From the NCBI GenBank assembly GCA_016721625.1, contig JADKHR010000001.1:1967225-2031224 (forward strand): 64,000 nucleotides of DNA, in the 5' to 3' direction. This document shows, in pieces, positions 20,118 to 42,793 of this stretch. The DNA is from Elusimicrobiota bacterium. GTDB taxonomy: Bacteria > Elusimicrobiota > Elusimicrobia > FEN-1173. The notes below the pieces were generated by a model, which was not told where the DNA came from, ran no database searches, and was given only the letters and a program-made list of their open reading frames with translations. How positions within the stretch are numbered: the stretch's first letter is position 1; each line of letters opens with the position of its first letter. The position numbers were made by a program, and so were the translations under genes.

Positions 20118-21576
20118 ATGCTTTTCAATTCTTGGGAATTCCTTTTTTTCTTTCCTACGGTGACCGCTTTGTATTTCATCCTGCCCCATCGCTCTCGCTG
20201 GTTCCTGCTTTTGTTGGCGAGTTGTTATTTTTATATGTCTTTTATCCCGATATACATATTGATCCTTGGAGTGACGATCCTGGTGGACTATTACGCCGGC
20301 CAATTTATTGAAATGTCGTCGGGCCGAAAAAAGAAATATTTTCTTGCCGGCAGTATTGTCGCCAATGTGGGTTTCCTGGCTTTTTTCAAGTACTTCATTT
20401 TTCTTAATGACAATATGGCGTTGATAGCAAAGGCGATCCATTGGAATTACCCTATCCCTTCTTTAAATATCATTCTTCCCATCGGGTTATCATTCCATAC
20501 TTTTCAAGCCATGAGTTACACGATTGAAATCTATCGGGGCCGTCAAAAGGCGGAGAAGCACTTCGGCCTATTTGCTTTGTACGTGATGTTTTATCCGCAG
20601 TTGGTGGCCGGACCCATCGAACGTCCTCAAAATTTAATACATCAGTTTTCCGAGGAGCATGAATTTGAATACGGGAGAGTGTCCGACGGATTAAAATTAA
20701 TGGCGTGGGGTTTTTAAAAGGTCGTTGTGGCGGACAGGTTGGCGCTCCTCGTCAATCAAGTCTATGACAATCCCACGCGGTACACGGGTTTACCGTTGAT
20801 CATCGCCACCGTCTTTTTTTCCTTCCAAATCTATTGTGATTTTTCCGGATACTCCGATATCGCCATTGGATCGGCTCAAATCATGGGATTCAAATTAATG
20901 AAAAACTTTAACAGGCCGTATTTTTCGAAATCAATTGCCGAATTTTGGAAAAGATGGCATATTTCTTTGTCTTCGTGGTTCAGAGACTATTTTTATATTC
21001 CACTTGGGGGAAGCAGGGTTTCAAAAGGGAGATGGCAGTTTAATCTGCTCCTCACATTCTTGATAAGCGGGCTGTGGCATGGAGCCCATTGGACTTACGT
21101 TGCCTGGGGAGGCCTGAACGGGCTTTATTTCATTTTTTCAATTTGGACGGAAGGGATCCGGAAAAGAATCACTGTATTTGCGAACCTCCATAAGTTTCCC
21201 ATGGTTCAACAATGCGGGCAAATCGTTATAACTTATTCACTTATTTGTTTTTCTTGGATTTTTTTTCGAGCCAAAAATCTAAAAGAATCTTTCTATATTA
21301 TAAGTCATCTTTTTAAAGGGTCGAATCTATTTTTAAATTCAAAGCCGTCATCTCCGGCATCGGTGGGTTAGGATTCGGAAAGAAGGATTATTTAGCTGCC
21401 ATCGTTTCCATGGTCTTTTTAGAAACCGTGGAATACGTTCAACGAAAGGAAAGCCTTAGGCCATGGATTTCAAAACAACCCGCCTATGTGAGATGGGGAT
21501 TATATTATTTACTGGTTTTTTGGATTTGTTCATTCGGGGTTTTTAGGAAATCGCAATTTATCTATTTTCAATTCTA
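20118..21576 (+). CDS. MBOAT-family membrane O-acyltransferase (AlgI/DltB-like), interrupted by an in-frame TAA and a frame change
   Basis: MBOAT signatures SFHTFQAMSYTIEIYRG, FWKRWHISLSSWFRDYFYIPLGGSR, WHGAHW; same-frame ORFs 20118-20717 and 20727-21371 separated by TAA at 20715-20717 (…LKLMAWGF*KVVVADRLA…); C-terminus continues in another frame to ~21576. Confidence 0.75.
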
Positions 21577-21581
21577 AAACC

Positions 21582-22712
21582 ATGAAAAGAAATGTCGGGG
21601 CATTGTTAATTAAAATATTCATTTTGTCGGTTCCCATCGCCCTCCTCTTCTTCATCATGTGTTGGGCGATGTGGACTTCTGGCGAATTGATGTCGGTGAA
21701 GGATATCCTCAGAAATGAAACACCGGCGACTTTGTTCGGATTGGCATACTCGGACCCTAAAGAACGCTACAAATTAAATAAGCTGATAAAGAAAAACCCC
21801 GTGATCATCGCGCTGGGATCCTCCCGGGTTATGCAGTTTCGGGAGATCTTCTTCAAGCCGAGTTTTTATAATGCCGGGGGGTGTGCGGGGCGAATAAAAA
21901 ACTTTTCACAGTTTATGGCACATCTTCCAAACGAAATGAAATGCACGACGATGATCGTGGGTTTAGACCAAAACTTTTTCAATCCGAATTGGGACGACTT
22001 CGGACCAGATCACTTTTTGGATTTGCTGGAAAAGGAGAGATCCCGAGGGCCGCTCCTGGTTTCATCTTTTCAAAAGTTTTGGTTTGATTTTATGACCAAA
22101 GGGATTTCTCTCTCAAAAATAGCGAACAACAGGTGGAGCGAGGCCATTGGCTTGAACGCCATTGTTCAAAGCAACGGTTTCCAGGACGACGGCGGATATC
22201 AGAGGGGGCCACCGGCGAATAATTTAATAAGGGAGATCCCGAATTTTGCCGCGGAGCCAGGATCGGATGCTATTTTGAAAGAAGGAAGTCGATTAGCGGC
22301 GTTTAAAGGCATAAATGTTAACGCGATAAATGAACTCGATCGTTTTTTAGCGGCATGCAAAATGCGAAACATTCATGTCATTGCTTTTTTCCCTCCCTTT
22401 CCGGAAGATGTGTATGACAAATTGCTGGAACTAAAACCGGATTTTACCGGTTTTTTCCAATTGCCTAAACTCGTATCCCCGCATTTAAAAACGTTTGGAT
22501 TTGAGTTTTATGATTTCACAAATCCCAGAACGTTGGGAGCCCAAAACATGGAGTTTTGCGACAGTATTCATGGTTCCGACACGGTGTATTTGAGAATCGT
22601 TATTGGTATGGCCTTGAGGGGATCTTCCATAAACCAGAGCATCGATTTAAATTCCCTTGCCAAAATGCTTAACGATTCAAAAGGTGGAAAATCGGTATTC
22701 CCTTTAAAATAA
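21582..22712 (+). CDS. DltD/AlgJ-like SGNH-type acyltransferase partner of MBOAT, membrane-anchored
   Basis: 376-aa ORF with N-terminal signal anchor (…ILSVPIALLFFIMCWAMW…), GSS-containing segment …VIIALGSSRVMQF… and …CDSIHGSDTVYL…; directly downstream of MBOAT gene. Confidence 0.5.
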   Translation: MKRNVGALLIKIFILSVPIALLFFIMCWAMWTSGELMSVKDILRNETPATLFGLAYSDPKERYKLNKLIKKNPVIIALGSSRVMQFREIFFKPSFYNAGGCAGRIKNFSQFMAHLPNEMKCTTMIVGLDQNFFNPNWDDFGPDHFLDLLEKERSRGPLLVSSFQKFWFDFMTKGISLSKIANNRWSEAIGLNAIVQSNGFQDDGGYQRGPPANNLIREIPNFAAEPGSDAILKEGSRLAAFKGINVNAINELDRFLAACKMRNIHVIAFFPPFPEDVYDKLLELKPDFTGFFQLPKLVSPHLKTFGFEFYDFTNPRTLGAQNMEFCDSIHGSDTVYLRIVIGMALRGSSINQSIDLNSLAKMLNDSKGGKSVFPLK

Positions 22713-22771
22713 CCGCCGGACCACGGGGGAAAGGGGGGCCGAAATTAAACCGTTGGATGCCATTTTAACTG

Positions 22772-22831
22772 TATAATAGGGGTCGGTTTCCTTTGATGGA
22801 GGCTTTCGTCTTAGCGTAAGACGATTGACAT
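22772..22831 (+). promoter_or_regulatory. candidate promoter/5' leader element upstream of radical SAM gene
   Basis: TATAAT hexamer at 22772-22777 preceded by TG; perfect 19-bp palindrome tcgtcttagcgtaagacga at 22807-22825; TTGACA at 22826-22831; -35/-10 spacing not canonical. Confidence 0.25.
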
Positions 22832-22874
22832 GGCGGGGCCGAAGCCGGTCCGGCAGTAAAGGGACGCGCGCCAT

Positions 22875-23903
22875 ATGGAAAAGTCTTTTGTTCCCTTGGG
22901 GTGGTTGCCTCAAGAACACGTCGTCCAAATCAGCGCGGATTACGTCGAGGTTCTTGGCACCGATCGAATCGATAACGTGGAAAAACGTCTAGGTCCGTCG
23001 TATCAGGCGTACCGCGCGAACTGGACGTCACGGCCGCGATCGCAAATCGTGGGCGATTATCCCCTCCATTTGGATGTGGAATGCACGGCCGTTTGCAACC
23101 TTCGTTGCACCATGTGTCAAATCCCCTTTGATACGATGCCCTCCGGGTTGATTTCCCCAGGCCTCTTCAAGAAGATCATGGACGAAATTAAGCTGAGCAA
23201 AGCCGACCTTCCCTCCGTGAAATTTAATTTTCGCGGGGAACCCACCCTCCATCCTCAGATAGCGGAATTTGTCCGCTTGGCTCGGGAGTCGGGAATTATG
23301 GATGTCCAGTTCAACACGAACGGGACCATGCTGAACGAAAAACTTTCCAAGGACCTTATCTCCGCCGGTCTGGTGCGCATCAAATTTTCTTTGGACAGCA
23401 TGAATCCTTCCCTCTACAACAGCGTTCGGAAAGGCGCCGACTACAAAAAAACGTTAGGGCACATCCTTGATTTTTTGAGAATTCGAAATGAGCTTGGATC
23501 GGCTTTTCCTTCCGTGATGGTCCAAATGGTTTTCATGTCCATGAACCAAAATGAACTCATGGATTACATCCATTTCTGGCAGGACAAGGTCAACCGGATT
23601 GGGATTTCACGCTACCGCTCCGGCAACAATGAGTCCGGAGAGGACGCCCAGGTGAATGTTCCAGTGCAAACCGAACGGTTCCCTTGCCCCCAGCTATGGC
23701 AAAGGCTGGTCATCCTTTTTGACGGCACGGTGCTGATGTGTTGCGGAGATCACCACAGCAAAAATCCTATCGGGGATATCAAAACCCGTTCAATCCGTGA
23801 CATTTGGCACAGTCCGGAGCTCTCCGCCATGAGACGATTACATTCGGAACACCGGTATGATGAAATAGAGGCGTGCAAGGGTTGTCAAATCAACTGTCGT
23901 TGA
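22875..23903 (+). CDS. radical SAM protein with C-terminal SPASM/twitch-like Cys cluster
   Basis: CxxxCxxC motif in ...ECTAVCNLRCTMCQ...; C-terminal cysteine-rich region ...CPQLWQRLVILFDGTVLMCCGDHH...ACKGCQINC. Confidence 0.8.
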   Translation: MEKSFVPLGWLPQEHVVQISADYVEVLGTDRIDNVEKRLGPSYQAYRANWTSRPRSQIVGDYPLHLDVECTAVCNLRCTMCQIPFDTMPSGLISPGLFKKIMDEIKLSKADLPSVKFNFRGEPTLHPQIAEFVRLARESGIMDVQFNTNGTMLNEKLSKDLISAGLVRIKFSLDSMNPSLYNSVRKGADYKKTLGHILDFLRIRNELGSAFPSVMVQMVFMSMNQNELMDYIHFWQDKVNRIGISRYRSGNNESGEDAQVNVPVQTERFPCPQLWQRLVILFDGTVLMCCGDHHSKNPIGDIKTRSIRDIWHSPELSAMRRLHSEHRYDEIEACKGCQINCR

Positions 23904-23999
23904 CGGCGGGTTTTCGGGCGGAGAGAATGAGGAAAAGGTCGACGAAACATCGGTCGGGCCGGGGGTGGTGATTTGAAATTGGCGAACAGGTCGGGGGCG

Positions 24000-24572
24000 A
24001 TGAAAACGAAATACCTGGTTGGCCGGCGCGTTACGCTCGGGCTGATTTCGCTCCGGGCCGATTTGTCCCACTACGCGGATTGGGTCAATGACCGCGAAAC
24101 GACCCAATTTATGGCGGTCGGGCGGTTCCCCGTGACGCTCGGCGAATTGCGGGCCTACGTCCGCCAGTATGCCGTCGACAAAACTGGCCTCTTGCTGGGT
24201 ATTTTTCTAAATAAATCAAAACGACACATTGGAAATATCACGTTGAACGACATACAATGGAAGGATCGGCGCGCGGAGGTCGGCGTTCTCATCGGGGAGA
24301 AGCCGTTCCGCGGCAAAGGTTACGGCCGGGAGGCCATCGAGCTCATTGTCGAGCATGCGTTCGGGTGGCTTAATTTACACAAGTTGTCTTGCGGGATGGT
24401 CGAGGGCAATGAGGCCTCTCGCCGGGCATTTATGCGGATCGGTTTTAAGGAGGAAGGGTTTTTGCGCCGTCATGTTTTTGTGGACGGTTCCTACCTGGGT
24501 TGTTACCGCCTGGGTTTATTGCGGGAAGAGTATGCAAAAACATTGCAACCAAAATTGAAACGAAGGGAATAA
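24000..24572 (+). CDS. GNAT-family N-acetyltransferase
   Basis: ATG 24000 in frame of ORF 23973-24572; acetyl-CoA binding-like segment …RGKGYGREAIELIVEHAFGWLNLHKL…. Confidence 0.65.
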   Translation: MKTKYLVGRRVTLGLISLRADLSHYADWVNDRETTQFMAVGRFPVTLGELRAYVRQYAVDKTGLLLGIFLNKSKRHIGNITLNDIQWKDRRAEVGVLIGEKPFRGKGYGREAIELIVEHAFGWLNLHKLSCGMVEGNEASRRAFMRIGFKEEGFLRRHVFVDGSYLGCYRLGLLREEYAKTLQPKLKRRE

Positions 24573-24576
24573 AACC

Positions 24577-26502
24577 ATGCGGAAAATGTTTATTGCCACC
24601 GGTGACCGTCGGCTCGATTTGGGTGTTTCGCTTGAACCCGTTACGGCCTTGCGCGGCGGGTCGAATTTGGTCGCGAGTCTTAAAACGGCCGATCATACGA
24701 TTTCTATCTCGGCCACGAAGAAAGCCTACATTTGGGGGGATTTGTTTTATTTCATTAACCCGGACGGTTCCGTCCTCCCGATGAATTCAAAGGGGCGGAT
24801 CCAAAACATTTTCCGGAAACATTCCTATCGGGATATTCATCACTCGATGGAAGGCCAGTTCGTGTGCCTGCTCGCGGATTCCGAAAAGAGAAATGCCGTT
24901 ATTTTTTCCGATCGATACTCGCGCCAAGATTATTTTTACGCGGAAGAAAATAATCAATTCTACCTCAGTTCCGATCTGGATTTGTTGTTCACGTTCATTC
25001 AACCGCGCTACGACCAGAAAATGATCGCCCACATGTTTTCGGTGTATGGGTGGTATGTCCCCAAGCCGCGAACCATGTATGTGGGAGTGAACCGTTTGGC
25101 CGTTGGAGAAATTAAACATTTGGACGGGGAGATTTCAACGGAACAGGTCGAATTCAAACCTCTGCCCATCCAAGATTACACTCAAAACCACCTGGCCACG
25201 TACGAGAGTTATTTGCGGAATTCCATCAGAACCCGGGCCAACCAAAAAGGGACCACATGGGTGTCCAGTTCAAGCGGTTGGGATTCGTCCAGCTTGGTCG
25301 GCCTGTTGGCGGATGAGTTCGGTTCTGGAAAAGTCAGGATGGTCACCGGCAGTATGCTGTACTCGAAGGCGACCCATGTCATCAATTCTTTTGAAATCGA
25401 GAAGATAAAGAAAATCGGCAAATTTTTTGGAATCCGCCCCGATATTGTTCCTTTCGATTTCAAAAACCGGGCCATCGTGGATTACTGGAAGAAGGTGCTT
25501 CCATTTTATAAATCGCGTCATGTCTACACGATCGTCACCCACAATTACTCCCGCTTGTCCGAACGGCTGACGGAGTCGAACGGAGGGTCGGAAGTGGTTT
25601 TCAATGGAGAGACCTCGGATTCTTTTCACAATTTCGGGTTTTCTCAATTTGTGACATTTTTTCATACCGTCAAATCATTCACCGAATACGCCGATAAAAT
25701 GAATTGCTATCTTTTCGGACCGACTTTCTTTAAGAAAGTCCTTGATGATTCATACCTGAGCGACAAAGTGTTCCAGATTTTTCAACGAATGAAACCCGAG
25801 GTCAAGTGGGCGGGGGCGGGGGCCTCCAAGGCGGAAAAGATGCGCGCCTATTTATCTCCGTTATTCCACGGCTCAACGAGGATTCCCTTTGCGAGAATCC
25901 CCGCCAATCCGGCCCTGAAACCGTCTGTTGAGGCCCAATCCGTCCATTACATGTTTGAGTGTTTTCGGAATTTGGAATCGATGACCCCGGAAACAATGTA
26001 TTCGTGGATAATTTATCTCTACCACAGCATGCATTCCCAGGGCTCCACGGTCAATGTTCAAAAACACGCCATGGCCATGAACGGCCACGGGTGGAGATCT
26101 CCTTTTAATGATTTACGATTAATCCAACTGCTTTCACAGGCTCCCGAGTCTTGGGGACGGGGCCTCGATCTCCATCACACAAAGTATCCGCTGAAATGGT
26201 TGTTGAAAAACCGTCTTAAATTTCCGTATGAATTGCTTGAAACGGGTCCCCATTCCTATCTCTATGACGTTCTCGAGGGATTTTCTTTGACCGAGGAGAT
26301 CGTCTACCGATCGGGAGTGAGTGAATTTTTCCGTCAAACCCTCCATTCAAAGCCGTATCGAGGGTTATTGGATGATCGCACCTTCAATGTCAAATACCTG
26401 GACTCCATTGCGGATGCGTATCTGCAAAAAAAGGAGACGAAAGGCCAAGATTTCAACAATCTTGTCAGTCTGATCACTTTGTGCATGACCGGGTGGTATT
26501 GA
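24577..26502 (+). CDS. asparagine synthetase-like PP-loop ATP pyrophosphatase lacking N-terminal Cys nucleophile (possible sugar amidotransferase)
   Basis: 641-aa ORF; PP-loop-like segment ...TTWVSSSSGWDSSSLVGLL...; N-terminus MRKMFIATGD has no Cys2. Confidence 0.55.
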   Translation: MRKMFIATGDRRLDLGVSLEPVTALRGGSNLVASLKTADHTISISATKKAYIWGDLFYFINPDGSVLPMNSKGRIQNIFRKHSYRDIHHSMEGQFVCLLADSEKRNAVIFSDRYSRQDYFYAEENNQFYLSSDLDLLFTFIQPRYDQKMIAHMFSVYGWYVPKPRTMYVGVNRLAVGEIKHLDGEISTEQVEFKPLPIQDYTQNHLATYESYLRNSIRTRANQKGTTWVSSSSGWDSSSLVGLLADEFGSGKVRMVTGSMLYSKATHVINSFEIEKIKKIGKFFGIRPDIVPFDFKNRAIVDYWKKVLPFYKSRHVYTIVTHNYSRLSERLTESNGGSEVVFNGETSDSFHNFGFSQFVTFFHTVKSFTEYADKMNCYLFGPTFFKKVLDDSYLSDKVFQIFQRMKPEVKWAGAGASKAEKMRAYLSPLFHGSTRIPFARIPANPALKPSVEAQSVHYMFECFRNLESMTPETMYSWIIYLYHSMHSQGSTVNVQKHAMAMNGHGWRSPFNDLRLIQLLSQAPESWGRGLDLHHTKYPLKWLLKNRLKFPYELLETGPHSYLYDVLEGFSLTEEIVYRSGVSEFFRQTLHSKPYRGLLDDRTFNVKYLDSIADAYLQKKETKGQDFNNLVSLITLCMTGWY

Positions 26503-26550
26503 TCCCTTGGAGGATTTAAAGGCTTCCATGGTGCAGGTTTCGGACGCGGT

Positions 26551-28053
26551 ATGGCCGGCATGGAAGTTGAAAAGAAGTTAATAACGAACTCGTTTTTCTA
26601 TGTTTTGCCGAAATTTGCCGGAATCGGCATTAACATAATGACGCTACCGATATTAACGAGGATTTTGAGCCCCCAGGATTTCGGGGCCGTGGCCATGGCC
26701 ACGGTGTTTTCAACCTTTGCCGTGGGGATTTTTTCATGGGGTTTGCCGATCGCGGTCCAGCGGTATTTTTTCGAATACCGAAGAGACCCCGTTCGGCTGG
26801 GTCGATATCTTTTCACGTGCCAATTTTTTCTGCACTTGGTCCTGCTCGTTTCTTCCGCGCCCATCTATATTTTCAGGAACGCCTTTTCAACGTTGTTCAT
26901 AGGAAACCCAGGGTACGGAAACGCATTTTTTACGTTTTACGTATCGACTTTTTTCTTCTTCATCCTCAACGTGTACTTAACGACGTTACAGAACTTTGAA
27001 AATGCGAAAGTCCATTCGTTTTTCACGATATTCCATGCCGTTGTTTTAGGCGGTCTCAATGTGACGTTAAGTTTTTCGTTTAAAGATTACACCGGCTTGA
27101 TGTACGCTTCAATCGCAAGTTCTTTTGGGGTCTCCGCCCTATGCACGTTATATTTTTTTAAATATTTTCGAAACGTTTTAAGTTTTGAAATGCTCAAAGA
27201 AAGTCTGGTTTACGGGGCCCAAAACATTCCGAAATCATTCACCGGTTTCATAGGGAGGTTTTTTGACAAGTACCTGATCAACAAAGTCCTCACGTTGCAG
27301 GCCGTGGGTGTTTATAACATCGGGCAGTCGCTTGGGAATTCATCGATTTCTTTATTAAACACCATATGGTCCTCTTTTCAACCCTTGTGTTATCGACAGG
27401 TGTTTGATCAGGGACCGAAGGCGAGCCGGCCCGTTGGACGATTGTTCTCCTATTTTCTCTTCGCCACCGCGAGCCCGTTGCTTCTTGTTCTATTGTTTTC
27501 TTCCGAAATCGTCCGTCTCCTGGCTCCCCCGGCCTACCAGCCCGCGGTGGACGTGATTATGATTTTTCTTTGCGCCATGTCGACGAACATATTTGGAATG
27601 TACGTAGGGGTTCAGTATGCCTACGCGAAAAAGCCGCTGTATATTGTTCTCGCCACAACGATGGGAACATTGGTCAATGTCGGCATGAATTTGTTGTTGA
27701 TTCCACGCTGGGGTTTGGTGGGGGCTTCTTTGGGGGCGTTGGTTTCCTACGCGACCATCAACGGACTGCTGACCGTTATTGGTCAGTCTCTTTATCGAAT
27801 ACATTACGAATGGGGGTTTGTGGCGTGCGTCTATGGAATCATCGGGCTCAGCACCTTGGCAGGCCTTCTAATGCGCGCCACGCAAATATCCTATGGCGTT
27901 CAACTCTGCCTTAAGATTTGCTTATTTGGTGCCTTGATCTTCGCGGGTTCCCGTTGGAAGGTCGCGACGATGGATACGGCACGAAAGATCGTCCGGTTGT
28001 TAAAACCTCAAAAGGGGCTCAGTCCGGAATTTCGCCCCGTCTCGCCTCATTAG
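26551..28053 (+). CDS. Wzx-type oligosaccharide flippase (polysaccharide biosynthesis protein, MOP superfamily)
   Basis: 500-aa very hydrophobic multi-pass membrane protein typical of Wzx/polysaccharide transporter family. Confidence 0.7.
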   Translation: MAGMEVEKKLITNSFFYVLPKFAGIGINIMTLPILTRILSPQDFGAVAMATVFSTFAVGIFSWGLPIAVQRYFFEYRRDPVRLGRYLFTCQFFLHLVLLVSSAPIYIFRNAFSTLFIGNPGYGNAFFTFYVSTFFFFILNVYLTTLQNFENAKVHSFFTIFHAVVLGGLNVTLSFSFKDYTGLMYASIASSFGVSALCTLYFFKYFRNVLSFEMLKESLVYGAQNIPKSFTGFIGRFFDKYLINKVLTLQAVGVYNIGQSLGNSSISLLNTIWSSFQPLCYRQVFDQGPKASRPVGRLFSYFLFATASPLLLVLLFSSEIVRLLAPPAYQPAVDVIMIFLCAMSTNIFGMYVGVQYAYAKKPLYIVLATTMGTLVNVGMNLLLIPRWGLVGASLGALVSYATINGLLTVIGQSLYRIHYEWGFVACVYGIIGLSTLAGLLMRATQISYGVQLCLKICLFGALIFAGSRWKVATMDTARKIVRLLKPQKGLSPEFRPVSPH

Positions 28054-28073
28054 ATGGAATAGGGAGAATCCCA

Positions 28074-29077
28074 TTGGGTCGTCAAAAATTTCAATTTCCG
28101 CTCCTCATCGCAGAGGTTGCCAATTCACACGGGGGTTCTCGTCCGTATCTTTTCCAACTGACCAAGAGGCTGCTGGCTACGAGCGTCCCTGCCGTTAAAT
28201 TTCAATGCATCGTGGCGGATGATTTTTTGACCCCCGCTCACCCCCAATACGAGCTATTCAAGTCCTTTGAATTTCCGCCGACCGTATTTTCCACGCTGGT
28301 GCGGCTCATCCATGGGGCAAGGAAAAAGGCGTATTTTGACGTTTTCGGCGACATCTCGTTGGCGGCGGCGGATCGGGTCGGCGCCGACGGTTTTAAAATC
28401 TATGCCAGCGACATCGGCAATAATCCTTTCATTGAAAAGGTCCTCTCGATCGGAAAGCCGGTCTTGATCTCAGTGGGGGAGCGACGCTGAGCGAAATCGA
28501 CGAGATTGTTAAAATATGTTCGGGAAAACAGTTCTGTCTCTTGGTGGGGTTTCAAGCGTTCCCTACTCCGATCGAGGAATCCAACGTGGGGAAAATTAAA
28601 TTCCTAAGAGAACGATACGGTTGTTCCGTCGGATACATGGATCATTCTCCGGCCATTGACCCTTTCTCGGAATTTGTCCCTTGTTTGGCGGTTGGGCAAG
28701 GGGCCTGTTGCATCGAAAAACACGCGTATCTTAAAGCCAGGAAGACCTTGTATGATTGGCAATCGGCGTTCGACCCCTCCCAGTTTGAAACGCTCGCTCA
28801 CCGCCTTAAGAAGGCTCAGTCCGCGTTGGGGACAACGTTCTTTCCCCTTTCTTCTTCTGAACAGGCTTACTCCCGCTCAAAGCGGAAAATCATTGTCGCG
28901 GCCGATCCGATCGACCAAGGAGTTCGGATCCTCCCCAAGAACATCATGGGCCGATGCGCCCATCTTTCTTCGAGGACCTCGTTTTTCACACTCAACCAGT
29001 CCGGCCACGTGGTCGGTCGAGTGGCTCGAAAAAATATCCAACGGTTCGAGGTGATCTCGCCGGACATTTTAAGATGA
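28074..29077 (+). CDS. NeuB-family nonulosonate/ulosonate synthase paralog 1 (one frame change)
   Basis: TTG 28074 after AGGGAGA RBS; N-terminal ...PLLIAEVANSHGGS...AVKFQ...; continues after a frame change at ~28470 (ISVG / GGATLSEIDEIVKICSGKQFCLLVGFQAFPTP...MDHS...IEKH...). Confidence 0.7.
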
Positions 29078-29811
29078 AAGAGATTATTGGGTTGGTCGCC
29101 GTGCGCATGGCTTCCAGGCGGCTCCCAAAAAAGGCTTTTCGGACCATCGCTGGAAAACCGATTCTTCGAATCCTCGTGGACCGGTTACGAACATCGGGAC
29201 TCGATGATTTTGTGGTTTGCACCACCACCGCGGACGAGGACAAAGAGATAGAATCATGGTGTTCCTCCAACGGGGTCCGCTGTTTTCGCGGTGATTCGGA
29301 CAATGTGCTGAGGCGGTTTGTCCGCTGTGTCTCGACAAACCCCGCCGCGTATATCGTCCGAATTACGGGAGACAATCCTTTTACCGATTTTCTGTCCATG
29401 CGGGAGATGTTCGTCGAGATGAAACAAAACAAGGCCGATTACGCCCGGCAGGTGGGTGTGCCCCTGGGGGCCGCCTGTGAAATCGTTCGGACCTCCGCCC
29501 TGGAAGAGCTTCACCGGCGCGCCCGCACGCCCGAACTAAGCGAGTTCATGACCTACTTTTTCGAGCTCGCTCCTTTTATACGGAAGCAGTTCTTCCATGT
29601 GCCGGAAAATATTCGGATGCCGCAATTGCGGCTGACCATCGATTATGAATCGGATGTCCAATTCGCGAACGCTCTCGTCGATCATTTTCATGGTCGGATT
29701 CCCTCGTTGGAGGAAATTGTTTCCCACTGCGTTCAACGGTCGGATTATCCGCTCGTGAAAGAAGATGCGGCGGCTTCGGATGAAATTAAAAAGAAGATAC
29801 TCATTGATTAA
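29074..29811 (+). CDS. cytidylyltransferase (CTP_transf_3 / SpsF-PseF-like CMP-sugar synthetase)
   Basis: ATG overlaps previous stop (ATGA); MKEIIGLVAVRMASRRLPKKAFRTIAGKPIL... and ...RITGDNPF... motifs. Confidence 0.7.
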   Translation: MKEIIGLVAVRMASRRLPKKAFRTIAGKPILRILVDRLRTSGLDDFVVCTTTADEDKEIESWCSSNGVRCFRGDSDNVLRRFVRCVSTNPAAYIVRITGDNPFTDFLSMREMFVEMKQNKADYARQVGVPLGAACEIVRTSALEELHRRARTPELSEFMTYFFELAPFIRKQFFHVPENIRMPQLRLTIDYESDVQFANALVDHFHGRIPSLEEIVSHCVQRSDYPLVKEDAAASDEIKKKILID

Positions 29812-29823
29812 TGGGGGAGCCTG

Positions 29824-30881
29824 ATGGGTGGAATTCGGTTCCAACACGGCGCCGCTATCGGCGACGGGGTTCACTGTTTCATCATGCTCGACGCGGGGGT
29901 CAATCACAACAACGATGTCGGGCGAGCCAAAGAACTTATTCGATCCGCCAAGGCCGGAGGCGCGGACGCTATTAAATTCCAGACCTACAGTGCGGAGGAG
30001 ATCAGCACGAAAAAAGCCGCTCGGTATTGGGATCCGAAACTGGACACGGACGGGGGGGGGACCCAATTCGAAATGTTCGCGCGGGTGGATGACTTGCCGA
30101 AAAAGCGTATTTTGGACTCAAAGAGTATGCCCAGGAACAAGGGATCCTTTTTTCTTCATCCCCTTTCGGCATGGACAGCGCCCGATTTTTGAAGAAACTG
30201 GGGGTCGATTTCTTTAAGATCGCCTCAGCGGAGATTACAAACTTGCACCTGATTGAATTCATCGCCGACTGCGGAAAGCCGATTGTTCTGTCGACGGGGG
30301 CGGCCTCCATTGGGGAAGTGGAGAAAGCCATTGACGTCATTCACCGGACAGGCCTTCGAGAGATCGCGCTTCAGCATTGCGTGCTGAGTTATCCGTGCAA
30401 GGATGATGACGCGAATCTGGCCAAAATGGTCCGGTTGAAGCAGATTTTTCCGGACATCCCCATCGGGTATTCCGACCATACCTTTGGGGCGGAAGTGCCG
30501 TTGGCTGCGGTGGCGTTGGGGGCGCGTTCGATTGAAAAGCATTACACCTTGGACAGCCGTCTCCCCGACAGTCCCGATCATAAATTCGCCCTGACGAGCG
30601 ACGAACTGGGGGATTTCGTAAAACGTTGTCGGAGGGTGGAAAAATCAATCGGCACCTACCGGAGCGGACATTACGCGGCGGAGGAGAAAGCCTATCAACT
30701 CGCACGCAAGAGCCTGGTGGCCGTCCGTCGAATTAAGAAGGGCGAAAGGATCACGGATCGAGCCGTTTCCTGCAAGCGGCCCGGGACCGGCATTTACCCC
30801 GAGTTTTTGGGGGTCATCGTGGGGAGAACGGCCAAAAAAAACATCGAACCGGACGAGCTACTCTCGTGGGACATGTTTTAG
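29824..30881 (+). CDS. NeuB-family nonulosonate/ulosonate synthase paralog 2 (one frame change)
   Basis: N-terminal ...CFIMLDAGVNHNNDVGRAKELIRSAKAGGADAIKFQTY...; frame change at ~30101 (A5 run; one more A gives ...LPKKAYFGLKEYAQEQGILFFSSPFGMDS...); middle ...GKPIVLSTGAASIGEVEKAIDVI...GYSDHT...IEKHYTLD... Confidence 0.7.
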
Positions 30882-30982
30882 AAGGATCCTCATGGGCTTT
30901 GGGTTCTCTCGTTCCGGCGGGATGGGTCGTTCGCGGCGTTTAAAATATTCAACGAATTCTAACGTTGCCTTTTGGAGCCAAA

Positions 30983-31978
30983 ATGAAAAACATGTTTGAG
31001 GGGAAAACCGTTTTGGTCACGGGGGGGACGGGATCTTTCGGGAAGATGTTTACGTCGATTTTCCTGAAGCGGTTTCGCCCCGAGAAACTGATTATCTTCA
31101 GTCGGGACGAGTACAAACAATCTGAAATGGCAAAAACGTTTCCCATCGAGAAGTTTCCCGTGAGGTATTTCATCGGAGACGTCCGGGATCACGACCGGTT
31201 ATTCCGCGCGTTCGATGGGGTGGATTATGTCGTGCATGCGGCGGCGCTTAAGCAAGTGCCGGCTCTTGAATACAATCCCACCGAGGCGGTGAAGACCAAC
31301 GTCACCGGGGCGGACAACATCGTCGAAGCGGCCGTGGATCGAGGGGTAAAAAAGGTGATCGCTCTCTCCACCGACAAGGCCGTCAACCCCATCAATCTTT
31401 ACGGGGCGACGAAACTTGTGGCGGAAAAGATTTTCGTCGCCGCCAACGCATACACCGGGAATAAGACCAAATTCTCGGTGGTGCGTTACGGGAACGTCGT
31501 CGGTTCCCGGGGAAGCGTTATTCCCTTGTTTGCCGATCTTAAGAAACGGGGCGTGAAGGAGTTCCCCATCACCGATGAGAAAATGACTCGATTTTGGATC
31601 GGTTTGGGGGCAGGGGTTGACCTCGTTTTGCGTGCGCTCGAAGAGGCCGAAGGCGGCGAACTTTTTGTGCCCCGCATCCCCTCCATGAGGATAACCGACT
31701 TGGCGCGGGCTGTGGATCCGGAGTGCACGTTTAAGAAGTTGGGCATACGTCCAGGGGAAAAACTGCATGAAACCCTCATTTCCGAAGACGAGGCGCGAAG
31801 CACAAAACAAGTCGGTGATTTCTACGTCGTTTTGCCGCAGTTCATGATCAGCGCCGCCCTCGATTCAAAATATGATCCGTTCGAATTCGTGAAAAATGTT
31901 TTTTCCTACCGGAGCGATACCAACGATCGGTGGCTCGATATCGCGTCTTTAACCGCGATGATTTCGCAGAATGAATAG
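30983..31978 (+). CDS. pseB: UDP-N-acetylglucosamine 4,6-dehydratase (inverting), PseB/FlaA1-type SDR
   Basis: MKNMFEGKTVLVTGGTGSFGK... N-terminus, YGATK catalytic motif, ~330 aa; followed by DegT aminotransferase. Confidence 0.8.
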   Translation: MKNMFEGKTVLVTGGTGSFGKMFTSIFLKRFRPEKLIIFSRDEYKQSEMAKTFPIEKFPVRYFIGDVRDHDRLFRAFDGVDYVVHAAALKQVPALEYNPTEAVKTNVTGADNIVEAAVDRGVKKVIALSTDKAVNPINLYGATKLVAEKIFVAANAYTGNKTKFSVVRYGNVVGSRGSVIPLFADLKKRGVKEFPITDEKMTRFWIGLGAGVDLVLRALEEAEGGELFVPRIPSMRITDLARAVDPECTFKKLGIRPGEKLHETLISEDEARSTKQVGDFYVVLPQFMISAALDSKYDPFEFVKNVFSYRSDTNDRWLDIASLTAMISQNE

Positions 31979-31990
31979 GGCCCTCTTTCC

Positions 31991-33133
31991 TTGATCCCTT
32001 ACGGAAAGCAATCGGTCACCCGTGCGGATGTGCAGGCGGTGGCCTCCGCCCTTCGTTCGGACTGGCTGACCCAGGGTCCTCGGGTGGGCGATTTTGAAAA
32101 AGCGTTGTGCCGCTACACCGGAGCGCGCCACGCCGTGGCGGTTTCAAGCGGCACCGCCGCGTTGCATCTCGCGATGCTTTCTCTGGGGGTCGGTCCCGGG
32201 GAAACCATCCTCACTTCCCCCATCACTTTTGCGGCGAGCGCCAACTGCGCGTGTTATGTCGGGGCGCGACCGCATTTTATCGATATTGACCCTAAAACCT
32301 ACCAGATGAGCGCGGAACGCCTGGAGGAGTATCTCCGGGTTGAATCTCGCAGGAGAAAAGTGCGAGTCATTATCCCTGTGCATTTTATGGGGACGGTTCC
32401 GGACGTCCGGGCGTATTCCCAAATCGGCGCGCGCTACGGCATTCCCGTTGTGGAAGATGCGGCACACGCTCTGGGGGCGGCCTATGAGCACAAAGGAGCC
32501 CAGGTTCGCGTTGGTTCTGGCTTTCATGCCGATGTGAGTATTTTAAGTTTCCATCCCATAAAACATATTACAACCGGTGAAGGCGGGGCCCTGCTCACCA
32601 ACAATAAGCGCATCTACGAACGGGCGCGTCGTATGAGGCATCATGGGATTACAAAGGACCCTTCTCGGCCGCGATGGTTTTACGATATCCCTGAGCTGGG
32701 TTACAACTATCGCCTAACGGATTTCCAGTGTGCGTTGGGGTTGTCTCAGTTGTCCCGCATTGAACAATTCCGCAAAGCGCGGTACGCGCTTGTTCAGAAA
32801 TATAATTCGGCGTTCAAAAGGATTCCGGAAATAATTCTCCCATTTGAAAGACCAGGGACAACCCCCTCTTATCATTTGTACGTCATTCAGGTCCCGCCCA
32901 AAAAGCGCCAGGCGTTGTACGACCATCTTTTTGGAAAGGGAATTGGAACGCAGGTCAACTATATCCCCGTTCACCTGTTTTCGTTTTACAAAAGACAATT
33001 CGGATATCGTCTTGGAGATTATCCGAACGCCGAGAGGTACTACCAGCGATGTTTAAGTCTGCCTTTGTTTCCTGGATTATCCTCTTCGGAACAGGAATAT
33101 ATCATCAAACAGGTCCAAGGATTTTTTCGATGA
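31991..33133 (+). CDS. pseC: DegT/DnrJ/EryC1/StrS-family sugar aminotransferase (PseC-like)
   Basis: 380-aa ORF with PLP-dependent sugar aminotransferase features (…AVSSGTAALHLAM…, …SFHPIKHITTGEGGAL…); immediately downstream of pseB. Confidence 0.7.
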   Translation: MIPYGKQSVTRADVQAVASALRSDWLTQGPRVGDFEKALCRYTGARHAVAVSSGTAALHLAMLSLGVGPGETILTSPITFAASANCACYVGARPHFIDIDPKTYQMSAERLEEYLRVESRRRKVRVIIPVHFMGTVPDVRAYSQIGARYGIPVVEDAAHALGAAYEHKGAQVRVGSGFHADVSILSFHPIKHITTGEGGALLTNNKRIYERARRMRHHGITKDPSRPRWFYDIPELGYNYRLTDFQCALGLSQLSRIEQFRKARYALVQKYNSAFKRIPEIILPFERPGTTPSYHLYVIQVPPKKRQALYDHLFGKGIGTQVNYIPVHLFSFYKRQFGYRLGDYPNAERYYQRCLSLPLFPGLSSSEQEYIIKQVQGFFR

Positions 33134-33137
33134 CGCG

Positions 33138-34016
33138 ATGTTGAACGCCGACAGGATCTGCCTCGGTACGGTCCAATTGGGTCTACCTTACGGGATCGCC
33201 AACCGGGGAGGACAACCCGACCTCCCCGCCGCTTTCTCGATCCTTGACGCCGCGCATCAAAGCGGGATCTCCCTGCTGGACACCAGCCGCGCCTACGGAA
33301 CCAGCGAGGAGGTCATTGGGTCCTTCGCCGAAAAGATGGGGAGGTCTTTCCAGGTCATTTCGAAATTGCCGCCCCATCCGAATTGTTCTCGTCTGAGCGT
33401 CTCGGGGTTTCTGAAGGAATCGTTAACCCGGTTGCGGGCCCCCTTTCTTCAAGGATACCTCATTCACGATTTCAAAACGTATCGCGACCACCCGGAAGTT
33501 TGGGATTTCCTGTTGGGACTGAAAAACGACCATCTGGTTAAACAAGTCGGTTTTTCCGTCTATTTCCCCAGAGAGGTTGAACTCTTTCTGGCGCAGGGGA
33601 TTTGCCCGGATATTGTCCAAATTCCGTTCAGTGTTTTGGATACCCGATTTGCGCCGCTCCTTTCGGAGTTGAAACAAAGGTCCGTGGAAGTTCACGCCCG
33701 ATCGGTCTTTTTGCAGGGCGCTGTATTCCTCCCGGAGGAGAAGCTGACGGGGGCTCTCCAAAAGGCGGCGGCCTCGATTCGAAGACTCCGTGAACTGTCT
33801 TCACAGACGGGGGTCCCGGTGCTCGATCTTTGCCTGCGGTTCGTGGTGGCGCACGAAACCATTGATCGGATCGTCCTGGGGGTCGATTCGGCGGCTCATT
33901 TGCGGACCAACGTCGCGGCGCTCGGAAACCCTTTTGAAGATTCCGCTCTATCGGCAGAATTACGACAACTGGCTGTGAATGAGGAGAAGGTCGTGGTTCC
34001 CTCCCTCTGGACCTGA
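33138..34016 (+). CDS. aldo/keto reductase family oxidoreductase
   Basis: 292-aa ORF; ...LGTVQLGLPYG... and ...LLDTSRAYGTSEEVIG... typical of AKR family. Confidence 0.7.
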   Translation: MLNADRICLGTVQLGLPYGIANRGGQPDLPAAFSILDAAHQSGISLLDTSRAYGTSEEVIGSFAEKMGRSFQVISKLPPHPNCSRLSVSGFLKESLTRLRAPFLQGYLIHDFKTYRDHPEVWDFLLGLKNDHLVKQVGFSVYFPREVELFLAQGICPDIVQIPFSVLDTRFAPLLSELKQRSVEVHARSVFLQGAVFLPEEKLTGALQKAAASIRRLRELSSQTGVPVLDLCLRFVVAHETIDRIVLGVDSAAHLRTNVAALGNPFEDSALSAELRQLAVNEEKVVVPSLWT

Positions 34017-34029
34017 TACAATTCGTCCC

Positions 34030-34803
34030 GTGAATACGGTCGCGATCGTCCAAGCCAGGATGTGTTCCACCCGTTTGCCGGGAAAAGTCTTATTGTCCTT
34101 GGGAGGAAAAAAGGTCTTGGAGCACGTGGTGGGAAGAATCCGCCGTGCCCGATTGGTCCGCGACGTGGTCGTCGCCACCACGATCCAGGAGGAGGATTTG
34201 GAGATCGTCAGGTTTTGCGCCGAAAACAAGATCCGCGTTTATGTGGGTTCGGAACAGGACGTTCTCGATCGTTACTATCAGGCGGCCCGGTTGTTCCACG
34301 TCGACCACGTGGTGAGAATCACGGCGGATTGTCCTGTTATCGACCCCCGCATTATCAATCGGGTGATCGCCCGCCATTTGGCCAGCCGCTCCGACCTGAC
34401 CGCCAACATACTTCGAGAAACCTTTCCCGACGGCCAGGATGTCGAGGTGTTCACTTTTTCGGCCTTATCGCGAGCATGGAAGGAGGCCAAGTTGGCCTCT
34501 CAGCGGGAGCACGTGACTCCCTACCTGAAGGACCATCCGACCCTCTTCAAGCTGACCAATGTCGCGTGCAGGGAAAACCTCGGAAAAATGAGATGGACTC
34601 TTGATAACAAGGAAGACTTTTTATTCTTGAAACATATTTTCAACGCTCTTTACGACAAAAAGAAAATATTCGGAATGGAGGATATACTCCGTTACTTGAG
34701 AACACATCCCGAAGTGGAAAAGATCAACGGACTCCTTGAGCGAAACGAGGGTTATAAGAAATCCCTCCGGCAAGACCGTCCGGTGGGAACGGAATGGCGA
34801 TAA
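34030..34803 (+). CDS. cytidylyltransferase (CTP_transf_3 family), second copy
   Basis: GTG 34030; ...NTVAIVQARMCSTRLPGKVL... and ...RITADCPVIDP... motifs. Confidence 0.7.
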   Translation: MNTVAIVQARMCSTRLPGKVLLSLGGKKVLEHVVGRIRRARLVRDVVVATTIQEEDLEIVRFCAENKIRVYVGSEQDVLDRYYQAARLFHVDHVVRITADCPVIDPRIINRVIARHLASRSDLTANILRETFPDGQDVEVFTFSALSRAWKEAKLASQREHVTPYLKDHPTLFKLTNVACRENLGKMRWTLDNKEDFLFLKHIFNALYDKKKIFGMEDILRYLRTHPEVEKINGLLERNEGYKKSLRQDRPVGTEWR

Positions 34804-34825
34804 CGAAAAAGGATGATGGGGCCCT

Positions 34826-36136
34826 ATGAACAAAACCCAATCGTTGTATAAGAAGGCCAAGGAATTAATTCCGGGGGGAACCCAGCTGTTTTCAAAACGG
34901 CCGGAACTCTACTCTCCCGGTTTATGGCCGGCCTATTTTTCCAAGGCGCGCGGTTGTCTCGTTTGGGATCTTGATGGAAAATGCTACGTCGACATGGCGT
35001 CCATGGGAATCGGATCCTGTCTTCTGGGTTATGCAGATCCGGACGTAAATGCGGCCGTTTCCAGGGTGGTGCGCGCCGGGAACATGAGCACGCTGAACGC
35101 CCCGGAAGATGTGGAATTGGCCAAACTCTTGGTATCTTTGCACCCGTGGGCGGACATGGCGCGATTTGGGCGCGGCGGCGGCGAAGCCATGTCGATGGCC
35201 GTGCGGATTGCCCGCGCGAGGACGGGGCGCGACCGAGTATTGTTCTGCGGTTACCACGGATGGCATGATTGGTATTTGGCCGCCAATGTGGCTGATAAAA
35301 AATCTCTGGACGGACATCTCCTTCCCGGCTTGAACCCCGCGGGTGTCCCTCGCGCTCTTCGGGGAACGGCCGTTCCGTTCACCTACAATGACACCGTTGG
35401 TTTTAGGAAACTCATCAAAGATGGAAAACGAAAAATCGGCGCGGTTATTCTTGAATCCATTCGCGGAGTGAAACCCGAAGGCGGTTTCCTGGCCGCCGTT
35501 CAAGAGGAGACTCGCGCCATCGGCGCTGTGTTAATTGTGGATGAAATAACCGCCGGTTTTCGGCTGACCGTCGGCGGAGCGCACTTACTCTTTAAGCTTA
35601 AACCCGATTTAGCGGTGTTCGCCAAGGGGATGAGCAACGGGTACCCCATGTCCGCCGTGATCGGGGTCGCGGACGTTATGCAGGCCGCCCAGGATTCCTT
35701 TGTGAGCAGTACCTATTGGACGGAAAGAATAGGGCCGAGCGCGGCCATCGCGACCATAAACAAGATCAAACACCTCCACATCCCGGGAAGGCTCTGCCGG
35801 ATCGGCAGGGAAGTGCAGGCCGGATGGAAGACCGCGGCTCACCGGCACGGGGTGGATATCTCCGTGGCCGGAATGGATTCGCTTTGCCACTTCAGCTTTA
35901 ACCGGGGGGATCCTTTACTGCTGAAGACGCTTTTCACGCAATTCATGCTGGAAGAGGGATTCCTCGCATCGAACGCGTTCTATGCGAGTTTTGCGCATAA
36001 GGAAAAACATATCGGGAACTATTTGGCCTCCGCCGATAAAGCCTTTTTCAAAATAGGGAAAGCCTTGCGAAGCGGCACGGAACGCTCCCTGCTACGCGGT
36101 CCGATTTGCACGAGCGGTTTCAAACGGTTGACGTGA
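34826..36136 (+). CDS. class-III (glutamate-1-semialdehyde aminomutase-like) PLP-dependent aminotransferase
   Basis: 436-aa ORF; ...GGTQLFSKRP...; ...LIVDEITAGFRLTVGGAHLLFKLKPDLAVFAKGMSNGYPMSAV... Confidence 0.75.
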   Translation: MNKTQSLYKKAKELIPGGTQLFSKRPELYSPGLWPAYFSKARGCLVWDLDGKCYVDMASMGIGSCLLGYADPDVNAAVSRVVRAGNMSTLNAPEDVELAKLLVSLHPWADMARFGRGGGEAMSMAVRIARARTGRDRVLFCGYHGWHDWYLAANVADKKSLDGHLLPGLNPAGVPRALRGTAVPFTYNDTVGFRKLIKDGKRKIGAVILESIRGVKPEGGFLAAVQEETRAIGAVLIVDEITAGFRLTVGGAHLLFKLKPDLAVFAKGMSNGYPMSAVIGVADVMQAAQDSFVSSTYWTERIGPSAAIATINKIKHLHIPGRLCRIGREVQAGWKTAAHRHGVDISVAGMDSLCHFSFNRGDPLLLKTLFTQFMLEEGFLASNAFYASFAHKEKHIGNYLASADKAFFKIGKALRSGTERSLLRGPICTSGFKRLT

Positions 36137-41761: not shown

Positions 41762-42793
41762 ATGGCGTCGCTGGGCGCCGTCCTCGTTAAGGGACCGATG
41801 CCCCCACCCAAGCCCCCTTTGTTTGGGGAATCCATCACGATGGCGGTGGTCATCCCGGCCTATAACGCGGAGGACTTTATTGCCCGTTGTTTGGAGAGCG
41901 TTTACTCTCAATCCCGGCCTCCTGACGAAATCATTGTGGTGGACGACGGGTCCACCGATCATACGCCCGATTTGCTTGAAAAGGGGGGAGGTCGAGTAAA
42001 AGTCCTTCGCACCCGAAACAACGGATTGGCGGCCGCGCGAAATGCGGGGTTTTCTCTAACCCAATGCCGATACGTGGCGTTCCTTGACGCCGATGACTAT
42101 TGGCCGTCTCATAAGTTGGAAGTTTACAATGATTACGCCCGCCGTTATCCCCGGGTGGGTTTGTTTTACAGCGATTATTATTGTTTTAGGTCAGAGAAAG
42201 TGTATCGCCGCGTTCGCGCGGGGGCTCCAGGCTCAAACCCCTTCTTCCAAATGTTAAAATACAATTGCGTGGCTTCCTCCGCCGCCATGGTCGACAGGGA
42301 TGTCTGGCAACGTGTGGGGGGGCTCCGAGGAGGCTTCTCTCATCCCGCCGGGGTGGTGGATTGGGATTTCTTTCTGAAAGCCGCGCAAGTGACGCCCTTT
42401 CAGTATATTCCCGAGCCCCTTATGTTCTACCGGGTGCACGAAAAAAGCGCGATGCAGACGAGGCAGGAAGCCATGTGGAAAGATTCCGTCCGCGTGGTCC
42501 TTTGGCATTCAAAAAACAATTCTGTTCCGCTCCAAGTGAAAAAGGAGGCCCTCGCGGCCCTCTTTTATCAAAGCGGTCTGCGGTGGTTGACGGCTGGATT
42601 TCCGAAAAAGGCCCGCGATCATTTTTTTCGCAGTCTGAGGTTTTCTTTTGGATCTTCCCCGAGCGCCGTTCTTTTTTTGGTTTCCCTGGGTGGGGCGAGA
42701 GTCATTTCTTCATTGTTGGCCCTCCGTCGTTACCTGTCTCGACTGTTCACTCTGGTTTCAAAATCCAACGATGGGTCACGGGGATGGAGTTGA
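41762..42793 (+). CDS. glycosyltransferase family 2
   Basis: ...MAVVIPAYNAEDFI..., ...IIVVDDGSTDHT..., ...FLDADD...; possible true start at ATG 41840. Confidence 0.75.
   Translation: MASLGAVLVKGPMPPPKPPLFGESITMAVVIPAYNAEDFIARCLESVYSQSRPPDEIIVVDDGSTDHTPDLLEKGGGRVKVLRTRNNGLAAARNAGFSLTQCRYVAFLDADDYWPSHKLEVYNDYARRYPRVGLFYSDYYCFRSEKVYRRVRAGAPGSNPFFQMLKYNCVASSAAMVDRDVWQRVGGLRGGFSHPAGVVDWDFFLKAAQVTPFQYIPEPLMFYRVHEKSAMQTRQEAMWKDSVRVVLWHSKNNSVPLQVKKEALAALFYQSGLRWLTAGFPKKARDHFFRSLRFSFGSSPSAVLFLVSLGGARVISSLLALRRYLSRLFTLVSKSNDGSRGWS

Follow-up and report, generated by a model that had tools for sequence, protein, structure and literature searches.

A Cys-less asparagine synthetase-like protein family of nonulosonate loci, found in an Elusimicrobiota bacterium, as a candidate amide synthetase of surface glycans

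What does a relative of asparagine synthetase do in a surface-glycan locus when it appears to have lost the ability to hydrolyze glutamine? This question is raised by a gene (hereafter the target) in a 64,000-nucleotide stretch of an Elusimicrobiota genome (GenBank assembly GCA_016721625.1, contig JADKHR010000001.1, positions 1,967,225 to 2,031,224 of the forward strand), which was analyzed as a whole and is called the window below. The target lies among genes for nonulosonic acids, sialic acid-like sugars that shape how phages, predators, and immune systems perceive bacteria, and whose variety comes mostly from tailoring enzymes. The initial annotation of the window had described a 641-amino-acid open reading frame (ORF) that begins with MRKMFIATGD and includes a PP-loop-like segment (WVSSSSGWDSSSLVGLL). 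This description was accurate, and the PP-loop proved to be the most conserved feature of the protein. By fold and motifs, the target is a member of the AsnB superfamily and a distant relative of asparagine synthetase. We give an even chance to the reading that it is an active ATP-dependent amide synthetase that tailors a nonulosonate surface glycan, which would be of the pseudaminic acid (Pse) type in this window.

A protein identical to the target has been recorded from an Elusimicrobia metagenome-assembled genome (MAG), and more than 100 homologues with 47–77% identity span 96–100% of its length, their own lengths ranging from 626 to 661 amino acids. The homologues agree with the target in length (approximately 640 amino acids) and in the start region. 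Because of the identical record and the end-to-end homologues, the target is regarded as a genuine and intact gene rather than a chance ORF. An in-frame stop codon was located six codons 5' of the ATG (...HCNQN*NEGNKT-MRKMF, with the asterisk at the stop), and the DNA 5' of the target is taken up by a GNAT gene in another frame, the stop codon of which ends at 24572, 4 nucleotides before the ATG. There is therefore no space for a lost Met-Cys N-terminus. An upstream in-frame extension beginning with MCG, for which the initial annotation had recommended a check, is not possible given this stop, and a hidden exon carrying the Cys residue was ruled out on the same grounds.

Several profile-based and structure-based comparisons connected the target with the AsnB superfamily, the sequence searches assigning it a marginal position in the asparagine synthetase family. 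The Pfam family Asn_synthase (PF00733) matched residues 211–621 with 22.7 bits (cut-off 21), GATase_7 matched residues 78–137 with 21.7 bits (cut-off 25), and NCBIfam TIGR01536 gave 59.7 bits against an equivalog cut-off of 267. Among 35 diverse members of the family, Asn_synthase matched 19 and GATase_7 matched 13 at E<=0.01. A direct phmmer search of the target against PDB sequences gave chance matches only; the family profile retrieved human asparagine synthetase (ASNS; 1.8e-7), TsnB9 (2e-5), and Escherichia coli AsnB (5e-4) from the same type of database. In hhalign, the family was aligned with the canonical AsnB of the window at 97.4% probability over 476 columns, from the middle of the glutaminase domain to the C-terminus. 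An AlphaFold2 model was obtained from the family alignment with a mean predicted local distance difference test score of 90.3 and a predicted template modeling score of 0.90. It comprised two domains, an N-terminal domain of the N-terminal nucleophile (Ntn) type and a C-terminal PP-loop ATP pyrophosphatase domain, and both ancestral domains are thus predicted by the model to be retained as folds. In a structure search with this model, the scores dropped steeply to about 10 after the top matches, and the lower-scoring matches were single domains, namely Ntn glutaminase domains (GlmS and PPAT) and PP-loop ATPases (LarE, NcsA, TtuA, and NAD synthetase). Foldseek agreed with this search, and its top match was beta-lactam synthetase (BLS).

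To describe the two active sites, conservation was recorded in an alignment of 35 members with 32–77% identity, and motifs were counted in 188 full-length homologues. In E. coli AsnB, Cys1 is the nucleophile of glutamine hydrolysis, Arg49 and Asp98 bind glutamine, and Asn74 belongs to the oxyanion hole. A Met-Cys start was found in none of the 188 homologues. The counterpart of the NGE glutaminase motif in the target reads WGD, in which the Asn is lost and the Gly alone is conserved. Residues 1–90 were the least conserved part of the protein, with a majority-residue fraction of 0.30–0.45 and one invariant position, and the alignment contained no conserved Arg or Asp in this region, i.e., no equivalents of Arg49 and Asp98. 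As an internal control, the canonical asnB of the window showed VCGIVG (49476), HRGPD, RRLAIID, NGEIYN, and SDTE. From these residues, the target family is judged to have lost glutamine hydrolysis, in agreement with the earlier statement that the protein cannot hydrolyze glutamine in the canonical way. The identification of the target as a functional glutamine-hydrolyzing AsnB or ASNS was rejected, the nucleophile Cys and the glutamine-site residues having been tested for and found absent.

The synthetase half of the protein showed the opposite pattern, and counterparts of the AsnB motifs were located along it (Table 1). In the PP-loop, S232, G234, W235, and D236 were invariant. The pattern S[SG]G[WYF]D[ST] was present in 183 of the 188 homologues, including 151 with SSGWDS and 20 with SGGWDS, and the aromatic residue at the 'x' position of the loop is a signature of the family. 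The GEGSDE motif of AsnB acts in acyl-adenylate chemistry; in the corresponding segment of the target, G344, D348, H351, N352, G354, F355, and Q357 were invariant and E345 was conserved in at least 90% of the members. P509 and D512 were invariant in the counterpart of RVPFLD, as were K536, P538, L539, and K540 around the position of the conserved catalytic Lys. A further invariant or near-invariant stretch was E524-x-W-G-R-G-L. Overall, 34 of the 52 invariant columns fell in residues 341–400 and 471–565, and the adenylating half of the protein is under strong purifying selection.

ORFs were called in 83 loci and in the window and clustered by BLAST, which corresponded to 77 distinct loci. A NeuB-family nonulosonate synthase was encoded in 39 of the 47 distinct loci that had 6 kb or more of sequence on each side, and the nonulosonate context noted in the initial annotation is real and statistically strong. 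Recurrent neighbors included enzymes for Pse and legionaminic acid (Leg), acetyl- and formyl-transferases, methyltransferases, radical S-adenosylmethionine (SAM) enzymes, oxidoreductases, kinases, and phosphatases. The target family is a component of Pse/Leg biosynthesis loci, and its association with nonulosonate synthesis, a GT-B-like transferase, and a flippase looks obligate. Genes of the Leg type, encoding a NeuC-like epimerase, a PglD-like acetyltransferase, and a PtmE-like nucleotidyltransferase, were found in other loci than the window; since Pse-type and Leg-type loci both carry the family, it is not tied to one nonulosonate stereochemistry. The commonest genes directly upstream encoded GNAT (12 loci), NeuB (10), a PseB-like dehydratase (7), and a NeuB-cytidylyltransferase fusion (6), and 35 of 80 loci contained the GNAT cluster. 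Representatives of most of the recurrent neighbor families were annotated, and no glutaminase or ammonia-supplying partner, HisH/HisF-like or other, was detected among them.

On the downstream side, a superfamily of proteins of approximately 650 amino acids (clusters c6, c20, c41, and c60; hereafter the partner) was encoded by the next gene in 28 of the 56 loci with 6 kb or more of downstream sequence, and within four genes downstream in 35 of them. Clusters c6 and c20 were homologous at 99.2% in hhalign, c41 and c60 being more remote relatives, and neither c6 nor c20 had a Pfam match. The partner has a GT-B fold that resembles transferases using cytidine mono- or diphosphate (CMP/CDP) donors. 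A Wzx flippase gene usually followed that of the partner, and the Wzx cluster lay within two genes of the target in 20 loci. In a mirror-tree (Mantel) comparison for co-evolution, r with the target was 0.26 for the GT-B partner, 0.21 for NeuB, 0.23 for GNAT, and 0.59 for Wzx; the partner thus did no better than NeuB or GNAT and worse than Wzx, and the comparison did not single it out.

Characterized members of the AsnB superfamily adenylate a carboxylate, after which a nitrogen nucleophile displaces AMP and an amide is formed. Cys-less AsnB homologues of known structure, BLS and carbapenam synthetase (CarA), use an amine of the substrate and not ammonia. As an amide synthetase, the target would bind ATP in its C-terminal PP-loop domain and adenylate a carboxylate with the release of pyrophosphate. 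A nitrogen nucleophile would then attack the acyl-AMP to give the amide and displace AMP, and the N-terminal Ntn domain would remain as a structural shell only. With no Cys1 and a substitution for the Asn of NGE, the target could not itself supply nitrogen by hydrolyzing glutamine. Since the family has no glutaminase of its own and none was found among the recurrent neighbors, the nucleophile would be either free ammonia or an amine, whether free or carried by a substrate. For the group activated, the C-1 carboxylate of the nonulosonate, present as a free sugar, CMP-sugar, or lipid-linked sugar, is put forward tentatively and with considerable doubt; it is favored because no other acid group is shared by all the Pse-type and Leg-type loci. 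The GT-B-like transferase inherited together with the target would then use the product, and Wzx would export the lipid-linked unit. A bolder version, which we think unlikely to hold, is that the family turns the C-1 carboxylate of Pse and Leg into a primary carboxamide, an amino-acid amide, or a BLS-like lactam, with the new GT-B family handling a CMP-sugar that is no longer acidic.

Several points weigh against this assignment. The activity, substrate, nucleophile, and order of steps are all inferred, the order relative to the transferase is a guess, and all members of the family are annotated as hypothetical. The PP-loop departs from SGGxDS, with Ser replacing the second Gly and Trp at the x position, so ATP binding is an assumption, and the target has Phe where the GGY of AsnB has Tyr. 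Approximately 17% of the well-flanked loci had no NeuB within 10 kb. Literature searches for nonulosonic, pseudaminic, and legionaminic acid linked no Cys-less AsnB homologue to nonulosonates, and we know of no natural nonulosonate described with an amidated C-1.

The family is a compact and strongly conserved branch of the AsnB superfamily that has been left uncharacterized, with an equally unannotated transferase partner. In keeping the adenylating half and discarding the glutaminase, it has repeated within a sugar pathway the move made by BLS and the lasso cyclases. If active, it would provide an amide-type decoration, or even the neutralization of a carboxylate, that structural glycobiology has not yet tied to a gene. 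If C-1 is indeed amidated, this would be an undescribed nonulosonate modification that is widespread in uncultured phyla and in some SAR11, Prochlorococcus, and Polynucleobacter genomes. If the target is instead an ordinary ammonia-dependent sugar amidotransferase, several hundred 'hypothetical proteins' would gain a useful annotation, but the outcome would be no surprise.

Other functions were weighed against that of an amide synthetase acting on the nonulosonate carboxylate. An N-acyl ligase, a rather improbable alternative in our view, would adenylate a small acid or amino acid such as lactate, hydroxybutyrate, alanine, or glutamate and move it onto an amino group of a nonulosonate or hexosamine precursor (N5, N7, or an extra amine), where the adjacent GNAT would acetylate the new aminoacyl group. 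N-acyl diversity is a hallmark of Pse and Leg sugars, and Pse with an amide-linked (R)-lactyl group at N5 has been described (PMC7281560). The gene content also fits: besides the frequent GNAT gene, directly upstream in the 12 loci mentioned above, a class-III aminotransferase, which could introduce a further amine, is encoded in 29 of 80 loci, including the window (34826-36136), and some loci contain genes for a PIG-L de-N-acetylase and ATP-grasp enzymes. The known enzymes of the superfamily (AsnB, BLS, CarA, TsnB9, and the lasso cyclases), however, adenylate the scaffold substrate and not a small acyl donor, and the ATP-grasp ligases are themselves alternative candidates for the job. The window, moreover, already has PseH-like GNAT domains for N7 (42648-44321), and no deacetylase was found in it. 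That the target is a pseudoenzyme, a non-catalytic structural or regulatory partner of the neighboring GT-B-like transferase, is quite improbable. In favor of this reading, one of the two ancestral active sites is plainly inactive, the PP-loop is non-canonical, and the linkage to a single partner family is tight; yet the adenylation residues of AsnB are the most strictly conserved positions of the protein across phyla, which would not be expected of a scaffold.

The initial annotation had raised the formation of acetamidino groups and a link to PseA/WbuX-type enzymes. PseA-like acetamidino (acetimidoyl) formation on N5 or N7 of Pse with direct use of ammonia would suit the nonulosonate context, and a Tannerella AsnB homologue has been proposed, without proof, to supply the acetamidino group on Pse (PMC6120980). 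This is very improbable for the target: the enzymes known for the reaction, PseA, WbpG, and WbuX (TIGR03573), form a different PP-loop family, to which no match was obtained at E<=1, the recurrent neighbors include none of the HisH/HisF-type proteins that usually provide these enzymes with ammonia, and chemistry of the AsnB type activates a carboxylate and not an amide carbonyl. The proposed link could not be sustained on this basis. The missing Cys1 is common to BLS, CarA, and the lasso cyclases, BLS was the top Foldseek match, the macrolactam-cyclase model NF033561 matched weakly, and a radical SAM/SPASM gene is located two genes upstream, all of which could speak for a cyclase of secondary metabolism or of ribosomally synthesized and post-translationally modified peptides (lasso, beta-lactam, or carbapenam type) that merely stands beside the glycan genes, possibly working with the radical SAM/SPASM enzyme. 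There is only a slim chance of this, as the NF033561 score was 22 bits against a cut-off of 300, the radical SAM/SPASM gene occurred in 8 loci only, and the 77 loci showed sugar-pathway neighbors with no lasso protease or precursor, clavam, or carbapenem genes seen. An artefact, in which an assembly indel or miscalled start has deprived a canonical asnB of its Cys N-terminus, is scarcely conceivable. Several genes of this assembly are indeed frameshifted, including the asnB at 49476, but the stop codon six codons upstream and the GNAT gene filling the upstream DNA speak against it, as does the alignment of the ORF over its whole length with equally long homologues, which come from many phyla and all lack Cys2.

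As a candidate amide synthetase, the target was also compared with individual systems. It is 10–15% identical to AsnB and human ASNS (1ct9 and 6gq3), from which it differs in the absence of Cys1, in its SSGWDS PP-loop, and in being encoded in a glycan locus, not among genes of amino-acid metabolism. The AsnB fold without Cys1 is common to the target, BLS (1jgt and 1mc1), and CarA (1q15), but the target is 10–12% identical to these enzymes and structurally no nearer to them than to AsnB. BLS and CarA have approximately 500 amino acids, whereas the target has 641, and they are encoded in clavam or carbapenem clusters, whereas the target family is found in nonulosonate loci. Identity to the hydroxyamidotransferase TsnB9 (7ylz) was 13%; TsnB9 has kept a functional glutaminase-type N-terminal domain and acts in polyketide tailoring. 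The likeness to PseA, WbpG, and WbuX lies in their being PP-loop ATP pyrophosphatases that add nitrogen to nonulosonates or amino sugars in a similar genomic setting, while the target differs from them in family and architecture and has no HisH/HisF-type partners nearby. Lasso and macrolactam cyclases (McjC-like) are Cys-less AsnB homologues that form an amide from an adenylated carboxylate and an amine of the substrate; the target is set apart from them by the low NF033561 score and by neighborhoods free of precursor-peptide and leader-protease genes. A further likeness, that of an AsnB homologue inside a surface-glycan locus, exists with AsnB-type uronamide amidotransferases (WbpS-like; Tannerella Tanf_01265 'AsnB'), and AsnB homologues of such loci are thought to amidate sugar carboxylates (PMC6120980). 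These proteins, like the copy in the window (49476-51360), keep Cys1 and the full glutaminase motifs, which the target family does not have. The Cys-bearing AsnB homologues of glycan loci, including the window copy and the Tannerella 'AsnB', are a separate lineage from the target.

In the window, the target is preceded by genes for a radical SAM/SPASM enzyme and GNAT and followed by that for Wzx (Table 1). The same order was found in a sister genome (L005), where the partner is placed between the target and Wzx. The partner copy of the window is located elsewhere and is broken by a frameshift near 16440 into 14983-16443 and 16463-17068. A PseG-like UDP-sugar hydrolase domain fused to a C-terminal PseH-like GNAT domain is encoded at 42648-44321 (TIGR03590, 139 bits; cut-off 153.55), and NeuB/PseI-like genes and two cytidylyltransferases are also present. 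The locus is assigned to the pseudaminic acid type, because its predicted PseB and PseC exceed the equivalog cut-offs.

Table 1. Positions of the target, its motifs, and selected neighboring genes in the window
Feature	Position	Strand	Basis or remark
Gene for Cys-less AsnB-superfamily protein (target)	24577..26502	+	641 amino acids; ATG start; begins MRKMFIATGD
N-terminal class-II (Ntn) glutaminase fold without nucleophile, residues 1 to ~190	24577..25146	+	
W53-G54-D55, aligned to the NGE glutaminase motif of AsnB/ASNS	24733..24741	+	Profile alignments with human ASNS and E. coli AsnB (1ct9)
PP-loop variant S232-S-G-W-D-S237 (canonical SGGxDS)	25270..25287	+	Aligns with SGGLDS of ASNS, TsnB9, and AsnB
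G344-ETSDSFHNFGFSQ357, counterpart of the AsnB 'GEGSDE' acidic motif	25606..25647	+	Aligns with SGEGSDE of ASNS and AsnB
R507-SPFND512, counterpart of AsnB 'RVPFLD'	26095..26112	+	Aligned to ASNS, TsnB9, and AsnB
K536-YPLK540, at the conserved catalytic Lys region of AsnB/BLS	26182..26196	+	Position inferred from hhalign
Radical SAM/SPASM gene, upstream of GNAT	22875..23903	+	Pfam; same order in L005
GNAT (Acetyltransf_3), same operon as target	23973..24572	+	Pfam, 83.9 bits; weak PseH-like match
Wzx-type flippase, directly downstream of target	26551..28053	+	Pfam Polysacc_synt
GT-B-like partner homologue of ~650 amino acids, no Pfam match	14983..17068	+	7.5 kb upstream of target
PseB and PseC genes	30965..33133	+	TIGR03589, 485.6 bits (cut-off 407.75); TIGR03588, 460.1 bits (cut-off 423.5)

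Downstream of pseBC, a trio of genes (33138-36136) encodes an aldo/keto reductase, a KdsB-like cytidylyltransferase, and a class-III aminotransferase similar to glutamate-1-semialdehyde aminomutase (34826-36136). The aminotransferase cluster recurred in the 29 of 80 related loci given above and that of the reductase in 19, and the trio may put an extra amino group on the nonulosonate.

Several other genes of the window were found in pieces. A divergent NeuB-like gene consists of an N-terminal and a C-terminal part (27918-28490 and 28541-29077), and a cytidylyltransferase ORF (28954-29811) overlaps it; this arrangement corresponds in other genomes to a single NeuB-cytidylyltransferase fusion of approximately 590 amino acids, often directly upstream of the target family. 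An MBOAT gene appears as two ORFs (20118-20717 and 20727-21371), the MBOAT identity having been demonstrated for the second alone. The NeuB/PseI at 30171-30881 begins at profile position ~80–100, its N-terminus being missing. The canonical asnB with Cys2 that had been reported at 49476 has the expected GTG-Cys-Gly-Ile-Val-Gly start, but a frameshift parts this start from the remainder of the gene: GTG-CGIVGLYSREQG is read at 49476 in one frame and ORF 49540-51360, with HRGPD, RRLAIID, NGEIYN, and SDTE, in another, the result of either an assembly indel or a pseudogene. Taken together, the broken genes suggest an indel-rich assembly, probably from long reads. The G+C content of the glycan region (14000-30000) was 0.42–0.53 against 0.59–0.64 in the flanks, a marked drop of the kind typically seen in surface-polysaccharide islands that are hypervariable and exchanged horizontally.

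In an exhaustive HMMER scan of 1.84 billion cluster representatives, only 423 relatives of the target were detected at E<=1e-3, of which 115 reached E<=1e-30, the full-length relatives all having approximately 620–650 amino acids. The family comprises approximately 115 clusters at 50% identity. Gene fusions suspected in long members (695–820 amino acids) were dismissed as an artefact of calling ORFs from the earliest start. The names given to the members at source were all either 'hypothetical protein' or the generic 'asparagine synthetase B'. A member was present in 87 of 185,579 species-representative genomes, nearly all of them MAGs or single-amplified genomes (SAGs). The carriers belonged to Elusimicrobia, Omnitrophota, Planctomycetota (including Scalindua and Brocadiaceae), Nitrospirota, Saganbacteria, Ignavibacteria, Bacteroidota, Acidobacteriota, Dehalococcoidia, and Pelagibacteraceae, together with a single Prochlorococcus and a single archaeon. 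Of the carriers, Polynucleobacter bastaniensis (L042) and Kiloniella laminariae (L053) are the two in culture, and they bring the question of function within experimental reach. The SAR11 (Pelagibacteraceae) members were found in SAGs (L043, L076, and L078), as was one in the Prochlorococcus genome (L083), the copy of which has 531 amino acids and is without most of the N-terminal domain.

Two further features of the related loci were recorded. In three of them (L047, L060, and L062), a conserved fusion protein of 797 amino acids, composed of a domain similar to flavin amine oxidases and UDP-galactopyranose mutase and a NeuB domain, is encoded approximately 4.4–8 kb before the target homologue. 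Next come genes for an NAD-binding dehydrogenase and a NeuB-cytidylyltransferase fusion, then directly the target family, and the module is unusual and undescribed. In addition, B12-binding radical SAM enzymes were encoded in 18 of 80 loci, with up to three in a row (window 36800-39013; L001, L008, L017, L060, and others), a hint that the sugars may undergo radical chemistry such as C- or N-methylation.

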